64,000 bases of DNA, taken from Euglena gracilis (Eukaryota). The notes under the pieces were generated by a model. The model did not search any database. It was not told where the DNA came from and saw only the letters and a program-made list of their open reading frames with translations. Below are positions 46,901 to 49,900 of the stretch, one piece after another; positions within the stretch are counted from its first letter, which is position 1; every line of letters starts with the position of its first letter. The position numbers and the translations under genes are program-made. The stretch covers positions 27,330,123 through 27,394,122 of the forward strand of contig CP154954.1 in assembly GCA_039621445.1 (NCBI GenBank), given 5' to 3'.

Positions 46901-49900
46901 TCCAACATGAACACAAACAAAAAAAGGTCAGTTCAGTCGACCTGAAGTCGACTGAACTGATGTGTGTATGAGTTTCAAAATTTCTGGAATGTCGATGCTG
47001 CTCATATACTGCGTAGAAAAAGGCTGTCACCGCAGGGGAAGCCGCCGCAGATCTGACCAGAGATGTGTCCCATCAGTGCTGGCCGGGGACATTTCCTTCC
47101 GCGGATGGCACCCTTGCAGGTGGCGCCCAATACCTTCATTGGCTCGGGGGTGTTCTGCTGCGTGGTGCTGCTGTGCTTCACGGTGACGTGCGGCTACGCG
47201 ATGGTGCTGCCTTCCCTGTGGCCCCTGCCCAGGGGTGCCCCGGCAAGACGTGGCGTGAACTCGGGACTCCACTCTACCCCTGGACCTGACATTTAACCCT
47301 GGCCCTGTTCACAACGTTTTATTTCACAGCTGTCCAATGAGCATTTTCTGTGATGCACATGCACATGATTTCTGCGTCTTTGCTTTGTGAGAAACTCTGC
47401 AGAGTTTATGTGCTGAAGCTCTGGGAGGCTGCGTGATGAACCTGGCTTTTCCCCAACGTCTTTTTTTTGTGCGGTGCCCTTCGGCGCCGCACCGCCTGCC
47501 GCGGATGCAACACCTCGGGGCGAACCACGTGGAGTACTCCATCGCCGCCGCCAGCTTCAGCAGCGGCGCGTTCTGCGGCATGCTGGAGCCGGGGCATTCC
47601 TTACGCCGGGCCCCACCCTACCCCACCCCCCGGGGGGTCTTTAACGAATTCCCCGACTGCGGCTGGGGGCCCTGGCGGACCACCTCTCCCCGAAGCCCAT
47701 CCTGCTGATCGCCACCGGTCGGCCCGCCCCCTTGCTCGCTCCCTGGGTGGAGGGCGGAAGGAATCGCCCTGTCCCTGCGGAATGGCCCCCATCAACCATT
47801 CCCATGATTCACCTGAGGGTCCTCTCCGTTTCTAAAACGGCATTGCTAATGGTTAATTTTGAGGTACCTTGGGGGGGAATGATGTTGATTGGGGGTTGGC
47901 TGTTCGGAGTGGCCTCCTGGCGCAGTATGGCTCGAACAGACATTCATTTAGTGTGGTACACCAAGGTTGTCATTTTGTGGTTCACTGTGGACACCACAAT
48001 TTTTTTTGTGGTTCACCTGTGGACACCAAAATTTTTTTTGTGGTTCATTTGTGGACACCAAAAGTTTTTTTGTGGTTCACCTGTGGACACCAAAGTAATA
48101 TTTGTGGTGCACATGTGGACACCAAAAAATTTCCCACCGCTTGCTGACATTTGCATCATTTTCTTTCTCATCAACAGCAATGAAGCAATCTTCTTTGAAC
48201 ATATTTGACTCAGGCGGCCTAAGTTGGCCAAAAATTCTGGTGCTCTAAAAACAGAAGAGGAAGCGGAAAGCCACTTCCAAAAAAGGGTCATATTTTCGTT
48301 TTTTTTTGAAGAGGTTCTGATTTTGGCCAATTCCGGTGGACGTTTGGCTCACAGTAAAGGAGACCTATACAATCGAAAACAGACCTAAAAAGGCCAACTT
48401 ATCTTCGACTTCTAGTAAAATCAACAAAACCAATCAGAAATACATGAACAGGAAGAACCGACAAGAACAGGCGTTGTTTCTGCTGCCGTAGGCCCCGAAG
48501 GAACGAAACACAAAAATTAAAAAATGGAAGCGGTAAATATTGCATTCCGCTTCAAAAGCAGGAGATGTGCAACGAAAACTGAACACAATGAATCATACAG
48601 ATGAAATTTATGAAGATAGCAGAAACTGAACAAACTGAACAGAAATTGAATGTCATTATCCAAAGTGCATAATGCAAACACGTCAAACCACGCGGAGACA
48701 ATTGTACGATTTACGAAGGGTAGAACAGGCGAAACGATACAGACCTTCTGTTCATTTCCCCGTGCTCCACCTGGAAGGACATTTCGACATGACATTGGCG
48801 TAAAACCTGCAAAAAAAACAGAGCAAATATGAATCGGTTATCCGCTTCCTCAGGATGACATAATACTTTTTAACGGTCTCACAGTGCCAACCAGAATGAG
48901 GCTGACACTAACCCTTCTGAATGGAAAACTATGCTGAATGTGGTCTTTCATTGAATGGTCAAGTTGAAGATGTGACACCACAGCAATGAAGTGGCTTTCC
49001 GGCTCCTACCTCAAAACAAAGCACATGGCATTGCCGATTTTTCAGGCACTTTTTCAGGCATTGAGGCACTCGGCACTCAACTGACACCCCACAATGCCCC
49101 AGAACGCTCCCAATGTCCGCAGCCATGCCAAAGCCCCACAATAATGTCGCGTGTTTCTGCTTCCATGAAGCGGAATTCCGCTTCATTGACGCCAGTACTT
49201 AACTTTTTGATGGTATCCTTGTTGGGTAAGTTGTCTATACAGCACGTCTGCTTGAGAACTCTCGATAGCAATCTGTCCAATTTCAACTGCCACGCGTTGA
49301 GCCGGGGCCAAGGCTCACAACGTGGCTGAGGTGTCTAAAGATCAATCCGCCTTTGGGTGTAAATTTTATTTTTTTCGATCCTCAATCAATTTTTGTGGAC
49401 CACAAAATTTTTTGTGGACACCACAAAATTTTTTGTGGTTCACCTGTGGACACCAAAAATTTTTTTGTGGTTCACCTGTGGACACCAAAAAAAAATTTGT
49501 GGTTCACCTGTGGACACCAGAAAAAAATTTGTGGTTCACACGTCTTTTGTGAACCACACTAAATGAATGTCTGGGCTCGAAAGCAACACACCACCGGGCT
49601 GTCCTGTCCACCCCCCCTTTCCTGCGGCCGCAGGCGTCGCGACCCTCGGCTGCGCGCTCTACACGGTGCCGCTCAGCCCCGGGATGGTGTACCCGGCCCG
49701 CTTCCTCTGGGGCCTCGCGGCGGGGACGTGGCCGGTGGTGCTGGCCACCGTGCGCCGCTGCTCGGCGTCCATGGGGGAGCTCTCCCGCGCCACCATGCTG
49801 GCGTCCCAGGCCCAGACCCTCGGGTGATCCATGCCGTGTGCCTCTCGTGTTGTGTTTCATTGGTGTTACGTTGACACATGCCTTCTCTCCTGAGCTCCTG

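Follow-up and report, generated by a model that had tools for sequence, protein, structure and literature searches.

A transposon with CAG...CTG ends and an 8-bp target site duplication in a Euglena gracilis intron, and its likeness to the nonconventional introns nearby

Introduction

In a stretch of 64,000 nucleotides of the Euglena gracilis genome (contig CP154954.1; the whole stretch is called the window below), a transporter gene of the MFS family harbours in its fourth intron a DNA transposon, at 47937-49573, that begins with CAG, ends with CTG and is flanked by a perfect 8-bp target site duplication (TSD). Here we describe this element, its relatives and the introns of the two genes that could be mapped in the window, and we compare the layout of the element with that of the nonconventional introns for which euglenids are known. 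Such introns leave the transcript as full-length circular RNAs once the conventional introns have gone. The origin and the removal of these introns have been questions since the 1990s, and their derivation from transposable elements of the miniature inverted-repeat kind (MITEs) has been proposed repeatedly, without a concrete transposon.

The nonconventional intron code of Euglena, N3-CDG...CH'G-N5-6|R, has been defined genetically, with a strict 3-nt spacer, a preferred 5-nt spacer and the purine (Nomura et al. 2025, PMC12501133). Fully synthetic 50-bp inserts containing only CAG/CTG, the 3- and 5-nt spacers, a 12-bp stem and the purine were spliced, and the mutational and synthetic-intron work together showed that the spacers require no particular sequence (PMC12501133). 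Genome-wide, the E. gracilis consensus reads CCAGG at +3 to +7 and CCTG at -9 to -6 (PMC11170887). A MITE-like origin, together with 'TSD-like' junction repeats or 'slidable' introns, has already been put forward (PMC12501133; Milanowski et al. 2014, PMC3935182; PMC11282704).

Results

A CAG...CTG transposon lies in a conventional intron of an MFS transporter gene

Genes were mapped via two transcript-derived E. gracilis proteins, P0002 and P0030, with junctions fixed at the protein level: for each intron, every donor/acceptor pair was listed whose joined translation reproduces the protein. An open reading frame (ORF) at 49633-49824, rich in G and C at third codon positions (GC3), matches P0002 (508 amino acids; EG_transcript_7072 of Euglena gracilis in EukProt) at 100% over 64 residues, and P0002 itself matches the Pfam family MFS_1 (E=6.7e-17). 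The transporter gene so defined occupies 46386-63947 on the + strand, with 16 exact exon blocks and 15 introns in the window, and extends past the window end. Its exons 4 (47661-47717, +) and 5 (49634-49823, +) are separated by intron 4 (47718-49633, +), a conventional GT...AG intron with a pyrimidine tract, this being the only GT-AG solution among six protein-compatible placements. In the mature mRNA, ...ATCGCCACCG (ending at 47717) is joined to GCGTCGCG... (starting at 49634).

The transposon, 1,637 bp long and in sense orientation, lies together with both TSD copies wholly within this intron, 52 nt upstream of the 3' splice site. A direct-repeat search placed the two copies of the 8-bp TSD, GGCTCGAA, at 47929-47936 and 49574-49581, and the whole of 47929-49581 reads in its context tatg-GGCTCGAA-CAGACATTCATTTAGTGTGGT...ACCACACTAAATGAATGTCTG-GGCTCGAA-agc; the arrangement ggctc|gaa-CAG...CTG-ggctc|gaa, which a first-pass annotation of the sequence had drawn, is seen at this copy exactly as it was written there. 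The terminal inverted repeats (TIRs), found by repeat search at 47937-47964 and 49546-49573, each measure 28 nt; they are complementary at 93%, and their outermost 21 nt pair perfectly. The same search revealed a left subterminal array with a period of about 32 nt (47954-48180; seven copies spaced 32 nt apart) and a mirror-image right array (49381-49575), the two also appearing as an inverted repeat with 118-nt arms. The interior holds two ORFs of at least 110 amino acids, and a Pfam search of them found no domain.

Three alignable copies make up what we call family A (7474-8506, 44575-46271 and 47937-49573); their homology ends exactly at CAG and CTG, while their flanks are unrelated and each carries a perfect 8-bp duplication of its own. 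The copy at 44575-46271 (TSD CTCCCTCC) precedes the MFS start codon by 115 nt and is 92.6% identical to 47937-49573 over the aligned columns, and 7474-8506 (TSD TTCTCACC) is a relative with the same ends and a different interior. By its TSD, its TIRs and the family alignment, 47937-49573 is a non-coding, non-autonomous cut-and-paste DNA transposon.

Because this copy lies in a conventional GT-AG intron, it leaves the mRNA passively with its host intron, and special splicing is unnecessary. The junction ggctc|gaaagc (47933/49579), which the first-pass annotation had proposed as the product of seamless removal of the element, is absent from the mature message as given by P0002, which joins 47717 to 49634. 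Unlike a nonconventional intron, the element is not bounded by exons, and the message given by P0002 is joined at the borders of the host intron, not at the positions of the code.

A public contig carries the site without the insertion

One public Logan contig of 1,385 bp encodes a 97-residue translation, P0001, in which all 96 residues after the start (96/96) equal the translation of the window minus the element and exactly one GGCTCGAA; the match fails for a site with two TSD copies, for one with no copy and for the uncut sequence. P0001 corresponds to positions 47892-47936 joined to 49582-49827. Its ORF runs from the 3' part of intron 4 to a stop in intron 5, so that two conventional introns are unspliced in it. 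P0029, a second translation, comes from a contig of 959 bp and likewise retains intron sequence on either side of exon 11. When shorter relatives of P0002 were searched for, only P0001 and P0029 came up, and no spliced fragment. Since two conventional introns are still present in it, as they would be in DNA, P0001 is in our own judgement very probably a DNA allele without the insertion; as proof of excision from RNA it was rejected on the same ground. With P0001 read as an empty DNA allele, the insertion at 47937-49573 would be recent, the 8-bp duplication would be confirmed independently, and the element seems to be present in only part of the E. gracilis material sequenced.

The layout of the element and its duplication follows the nonconventional intron code

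At the level of sequence, the order TSD, CAG, paired stem, CTG, TSD is shown to agree letter for letter with the published code N3-CDG...CH'G-N5|R. On the transcribed strand of 47937-49573, N3 is GAA, CAG follows, then come the stem, CTG and GGCTC as N5, and the next base is G. Where the code calls for a stem of about 12 nt, the ends of this copy form a perfect stem of 21 bp (-40.7 kcal/mol for the duplex of 30x30 nt). The arithmetic behind the first-pass annotation, that 3+5=8, is sound: a cut by the intron rule takes out an element and exactly one TSD, and cutting 47937-49573 by the code is accordingly shown on paper to be one that would leave a single TSD. With an 8-bp TSD, a seamless cut requires N5; after an N6 cut the product is one base shorter than the empty site.

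Donors and acceptors of verified nonconventional introns share an eroded repeat in the predicted register

The second mapped gene was recognised by the exon at 17355-17537, which matches P0030 (418 amino acids; EukProt EG_transcript_14032, PF19745), and spans 10140-22618 on the + strand with 15 exons and 14 introns. Together the two genes contain 29 introns, 13 conventional (GT/GC-AG) and 16 non-conventional. N3-C[AGT]G...C[ACT]G followed by a purine describes 11 of the 29, with N5 in ten and N6 in one; three more keep the 3/5 geometry with other triplets (CAC...GTG, GAT...ATT and CGC...GCG), and two fit neither scheme. The 'about 14 non-GT-AG introns' counted in the first-pass annotation are therefore matched, within these two genes, by the 11 code-fitting introns plus the three of the same geometry.

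If such introns began as insertions of elements like 47937-49573, the 8 nt before CAG (5 exonic and 3 intronic) should once have equalled the 8 nt after CTG (5 intronic and 3 exonic). In the ten verified N5 introns, donor and acceptor are identical at 39 of 80 comparisons in the register -5 to +2 (49%), against 55 of 200 (28%) at the 20 surrounding positions, and identity drops to 1/10 at +3 and to 1/10 at -8. Donors were then re-paired at random with the acceptors of other introns, a procedure that retains the position-specific consensus; the re-paired sets averaged 27.9 (sd 3.6), with 39 reached in 0.25% of 20,000 permutations (P=0.0025). With the three variant-triplet introns included, 48 of 104 comparisons are identical (P=0.0045). 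The first-pass annotation had called for a comparison of this kind against shuffled controls: the excess is there (P=0.0025), but in these ten introns of two genes no intron rises above 5/8. Conventional introns reach 48% identity in the same 8-nt register via their AG|GT consensus. We read these data as support for a direct repeat, now eroded, at the predicted 8 nt of the verified nonconventional introns.

The ends of the introns resemble those of the elements in two further ways. The mean energy of the terminal 30x30-nt duplex is -33.1 kcal/mol for the elements when cut by the rule, -24.4 kcal/mol for the nonconventional introns and -11.9 kcal/mol for the conventional ones; these TIR-like helices of intermediate strength at the ends of nonconventional introns make the introns alike to the elements. 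Seven of the ten verified N5 introns start with CAGG and nine have C at +3, in agreement with the published CCAGG/CCTG consensus (PMC11170887) and with the CAGG start of seven of the ten elements.

The code-fitting introns of the MFS gene, all on the + strand, are intron 2 (47227-47503; N3-CAG...CTG-N5|G) and those at 47587-47660, 51575-52984, 62981-63590 and 63706-63861; intron 12 (55631-61698, +), 6,068 nt long, has the same geometry with CAC...GTG. In gene 2, also on the + strand, the corresponding introns are 10179-10340 (N6), 10611-10753, 13206-14311, 14358-15115, 16871-17369 and 22233-22582, and the variant-triplet introns are 11576-11772 and 21472-22162. Neither GT-AG ends nor the 3/5 geometry are present in the introns at 51184-51342 and 15164-16155, the former of which has a CGG...CCG pair 5 and 7 nt from its cuts. 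Intron 2 of gene 2 (10393-10497) is best placed as a GC-AG intron with a C-rich tract, the sole GC-AG case of the conventional 13. An ab initio search for introns of the nonconventional type by the code signature, a stem of at least 6 bp and open high-GC3 frames gave 328 candidates on the + strand and a similar number on the - strand, and was set aside as unusable.

Ten elements of this kind are present in the window

The 64-kb window was scanned for perfect 8-bp duplications combined with a 12-nt inverted end carrying at most two mismatches. This gave 34 hits, among them seven of the eight elements listed by the first-pass annotation, the others being microsatellite or palindrome artefacts and one GG-ended element. 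The 8-bp TSD claimed there for all eight elements is perfect in seven, but at 1595-1814 (CATCATAG/CATCATAA) only 7/8 positions match. A second scan paired C[AGT]G with C[ACT]G over a 10-nt stem with at most one mismatch and scored the identity of the flanks; among 609 pairs, seven had 8/8 flank identity, of which six are elements and one is an artefact that lies in a large palindrome, while shifted-register controls yielded none at 8/8 in 2,436 comparisons. A reversed-sequence control (34 versus 34 hits) was discarded as uninformative, reversal preserving inverted repeats, and shifted registers were used in its place. Two elements beyond the earlier list, 62063-62685 and 21672-22063, bring the total to ten.

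Besides the three copies of family A and 1595-1814, these are an element of 379 bp, family C, at 11971-12349 (TSD ATGCTGAC) in conventional intron 6 of gene 2; 18389-20399 (TSD CCCCCACC) in conventional intron 12 of the same gene; a family C copy of greater age at 21672-22063, with flanks GCCCTGCC/GCCCCTGC that are equal but for a 1-nt indel, in the variant nonconventional intron 13 of gene 2; 26632-26892 (TSD GTTGGGAC); 40069-40510 (TSD GTTGGGGC); and 62063-62685, with a perfect TIR of 16 nt and with flanks GGGGGGGT/GGGGGGGG that lie in a run of G and agree at 7/8, hosted by conventional intron 13 of the MFS gene. The two family C copies have a mean column identity of 77%, flanks included. 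Since the host intron of 21672-22063 has CGC...GCG anchors, this copy makes for one intron nested in another at the DNA level. The families in the window end in CAGACATTCATTTAGTG..., CAGGCTTTTGCTTAAGG... and CAGGGG(T)n..., and by hand count seven of the ten elements start with CAGG and seven of the ten have C at TSD position 8.

The elements resemble hAT transposons

Elements of the hAT superfamily begin their TIRs with the motif (T/C)A(A/G)NG and have a weak target consensus, nTnnnnAn; CAG or CAGGG starts, short TIRs and subterminal repeat arrays are typical of the Ac/Ds type. All ten elements of the window start with CAG; CAGGG, in four copies, fits the motif, whereas CAGGC, CAGGA and CAGAC differ from it at base 5. 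The 8-bp TSD of hAT elements is found in perfect form at seven of the eight listed elements and at 7/8 in one, with 7/8 and 8 with one indel in the two additional copies, and subterminal repeats near both ends, another hAT feature, are present at 47954-48180 and 49381-49575 with the period of 32 nt. Against nTnnnnAn, the TSDs have T at position 2 in five of eight and A at position 7 in four of eight (hand count).

The label hAT, given by the first-pass annotation, is not proven: the 8-bp TSDs and the subterminal arrays agree with it, no transposase was found, and Merlin elements with an 8-bp TSD occur in the same species. Mobilisation by a superfamily other than hAT that makes 8-bp TSDs, such as Merlin, would leave 3+5=8 unaffected and change only the name. 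We consider it unlikely, in view of the CAG or CAGGG starts, the short TIRs and the subterminal arrays, features of hAT elements of the Ac/Ds type, and of the ends of Merlin itself: two Merlin families described in E. gracilis have 8-bp TSDs and a conserved terminal 5'-GG (PMC8101967), and measured by a 5'-GG TIR with a TSD of 8-9 bp our ten elements agree in TSD length while starting with CAG. In favour of Merlin are the existence of these two families, the presence of a GG-ended element with an 8-bp TSD at 8627-8912, and the window ORFs, in which Pfam revealed no hAT transposase or hAT domain. Given the 8-bp TSDs of Merlin in the same species, 'hAT' is only a likeness: 47937-49573 is best called hAT-like, its superfamily membership being unproven.

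The GG-ended element at 8627-8912 is a 286-bp foldback with long, near-perfect arms starting GGCAGCC and a perfect 8-bp duplication, ATTTGAAT (span 8619-8920). Its GG ends and its 8-bp TSD match what has been described for E. gracilis Merlin, and a cut by the intron rule would not be seamless here.

Intron ends, repeats and other features of the window

Intron sequences were compared with the window by BLAST. Whole introns were tried and abandoned, the result being swamped by cross-matching GT/CA microsatellites, and intron ends were compared instead, which gave six non-self matches of 13-17 nt, a chance level. Microsatellites of the GT/CA type lie in introns at 17215-17341, 37634-37800, 58333-58394, 59288-59367, 60390-60503 and 63409-63524. 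MITE families that form entire introns, which the first-pass annotation had suggested looking for, were not encountered in these 64 kb, neither among the 16 non-conventional introns (0/16) nor as exon-flanked copies among the ten elements (0/10).

A large inverted repeat inside MFS intron 12 (58741-61098), with a spacer of about 320 nt and arms of up to 430 nt that are 98% complementary (59288-59717/60040-60469 and 58910-59209/60580-60879), was the source of false 'TSD' hits in the scans. The region 34001-36000 has a GC content of 0.32 and a GC skew of +0.52, which sets it apart from the remainder of the window. Three high-GC3 ORFs on the + strand (24804-24959, 25201-25362 and 28535-28999) have leucine-rich-repeat-like translations (LRR_6, E=0.039, below the cut-off), and for the exon at 24804-24959 no matching protein was found among proteins of 92-2000 amino acids. 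Pfam gave nothing above the gathering score on 28 ORFs and candidate exons of the window, MFS_1 on P0002 being the only match overall.

Discussion

Taken as a whole, the observations are probably best explained by a recent hAT-like insertion into an intron, at 47937-49573, in a genome whose nonconventional introns descend from insertions of such elements into exons. In this proposal, an element with an 8-bp TSD and CAGG ends would insert into an exon and become the ancestor of a nonconventional intron. The excision machinery would read the helix that the paired transposon ends form in the RNA, cutting 3 nt before and 5 nt after it, so that a copy inserted in an exon would be removable from the outset if TSD position 6 held a purine, and with time the TSD would decay to the eroded repeat seen in verified introns. 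Its two linked parts, that the introns are old exon insertions and that the machinery measures 3 and 5 nt from the helix of paired ends, we hold jointly to be somewhat better supported than their denial. The wider inference of the first-pass annotation gains from the geometry, the eroded repeat, the stems and the consensus, but the copy it named sits in a GT-AG intron and none of the non-conventional introns of the two genes was recognised as a member of an element family.

Several findings weigh against this explanation. The purine at TSD position 6, which the first-pass annotation had counted in six of eight elements and which we found again in the same number, is not a significant excess (binomial P ~0.14). 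No transposase was found, Pfam being empty on eight ORFs inside elements. All five elements within the mapped genes (5/5) are intronic, four in conventional introns and one in a variant nonconventional intron; exon-like flanks, taken as a frame that stays open to the left and to the right with GC3 at or above 0.8, surround none of the ten elements (0/10), and none of the 16 non-conventional introns (0/16) has ends in common with any element family or any other intron. The best junction repeat in any verified intron is only 5/8, the test covers only 10-13 introns of two genes with junctions placed at the protein level, and the edges of the register are not sharp, since by our own sums a shift by one position scores 37-38 versus 39. 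An eight-nucleotide direct repeat at the junctions of a Euglena agilis intron, moreover, was interpreted by those who described it as a scar of double-strand-break repair (PMC4770533).

That intron, gapC intron 4 of E. agilis, is strain-specific and newly gained, and its eight-nucleotide repeats are longer than those of any other intron in the same study (Milanowski et al. 2016, PMC4770533). Compared by repeat length only, this is what the model predicts for a young intron.

The resemblance might instead be a coincidence or reflect another origin, such as break repair or the conversion of conventional introns, the repeats then being repair scars or effects of the consensus. The authors of the gapC work proposed break repair for the 8-nt repeat (PMC4770533), conventional introns are 48% identical in the same register through AG|GT, because of which consensus alone can mimic repeats, and no intron of the window is recognisable as a copy of an element. 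The permutation that keeps position-specific composition nevertheless still gives P=0.0025, and the repeat is not a functional requirement, because the spacers need no particular sequence (PMC12501133). Three independent features coincide, namely the length of 8, the CAGG...CCTG ends and the paired stems, and bona fide mobile elements of the same layout, one of them apparently polymorphic, stand beside the introns. Another origin of this kind therefore seems unlikely to us.

Most improbable is active nested excision, in which 47937-49573 would be cut out at 47933/49579 while intron 4 is retained and the contig of P0001 would be an RNA product: the copy has every element of the published code on the transcribed strand, and P0001, whose source is not typed as RNA or DNA, is the exact product of that cut, but its ORF reads through two conventional introns that are normally removed first (PMC6221363), P0029 is also unspliced on both sides, like genomic contigs, the relatives of P0002 are limited to these two with no spliced fragments, and the process is superfluous where the host intron removes the element anyway. 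The first-pass annotation's idea of a twintron keeps its geometric basis, in that the intronic copy fits the code, but runs contrary to the published time course, in which conventional introns are removed first (PMC6221363). The present data do not support the strand-independent splicing of such insertions that the first-pass annotation had inferred.

Returning to descent of the introns from exon insertions, a stronger version can be advanced tentatively, as a possibility to which we give rather less than even credence: Euglena may house a living, non-spliceosomal introner system, in which CAG(G)...(C)CTG elements with 8-bp duplications would still transpose, as the empty site at this locus suggests, copies in transcribed exons with a purine at TSD position 6 would be cut out seamlessly, 3 nt before and 5 nt after their paired ends, and the nonconventional introns would be their aged remains. 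The machinery of excision would have evolved to recognise a paired transposon end in its RNA form. Nested removal of intronic copies may be an optional extra of such a system.

What is new here is one concrete step added to the published MITE hypothesis, and partly supported by our data: that the spacers of 3 and 5 nt make up the 8-bp TSD. The portions of PMC12501133, PMC3935182 and PMC11282704 considered here name no superfamily, give no repeat length and do not equate 3+5 with a TSD; by word search, 'hAT' and 'TSD' are absent from the text of PMC12501133 and 'hAT' is absent from PMC11282704. A literature search that missed many subscription papers found none linking Euglena introns to hAT or to 8-bp TSDs. 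If the proposal is true, the donor transposons become nameable and countable, and the age of an intron could be read from the decay of its repeat. It would explain why about 70% of Euglena introns are nonconventional, most of them with 'slidable' borders, and would add a non-spliceosomal case to the known intron-generating transposons. The published EgGSL2 knock-in assay would be suited to a natural element with its duplication.

With hAT elements of the Ac/Ds type, the elements share the 8-bp TSD, short TIRs starting with CAG, subterminal arrays and insertion into genes; they differ in that the fifth TIR base fits YARNG in some families only and that no transposase was identified. A maize Ds element reportedly acts as a de novo intron. 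With the nonconventional introns of euglenids, 47937-49573 has in common the 3-nt spacer, CAG, the paired stem, CTG, the 5-nt spacer and the purine, but it is multi-copy and mobile, has an intact 8-bp TSD and lies inside a conventional intron. The Merlin elements of E. gracilis have the 8-bp TSD in common with it, but 5'-GG in place of CAG (PMC8101967). When the MITE-origin hypothesis was formulated, no euglenid transposon was known, as of 2014 (PMC3935182), whereas here element families with 8-bp TSDs stand beside verified introns. Intron 4 of E. agilis gapC is strain-specific and has the repeat length that the model predicts, although its authors favour break repair (PMC4770533). The introners of Micromonas, Aureococcus and dinoflagellates and the MITE-derived noncanonical introns of Fritillaria borealis are DNA transposons with a TSD that contributes part of the splice signal, which allows an insertion to be taken out of the RNA; the spliceosome, in ordinary or modified form, removes them, and their TSDs measure 3-5 nt (PMC11282704). 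In the cut proposed for Euglena, by contrast, the position would be set by distance from an RNA helix, the whole 8-bp TSD would be accounted for, and the excision machinery is thought to be non-spliceosomal.

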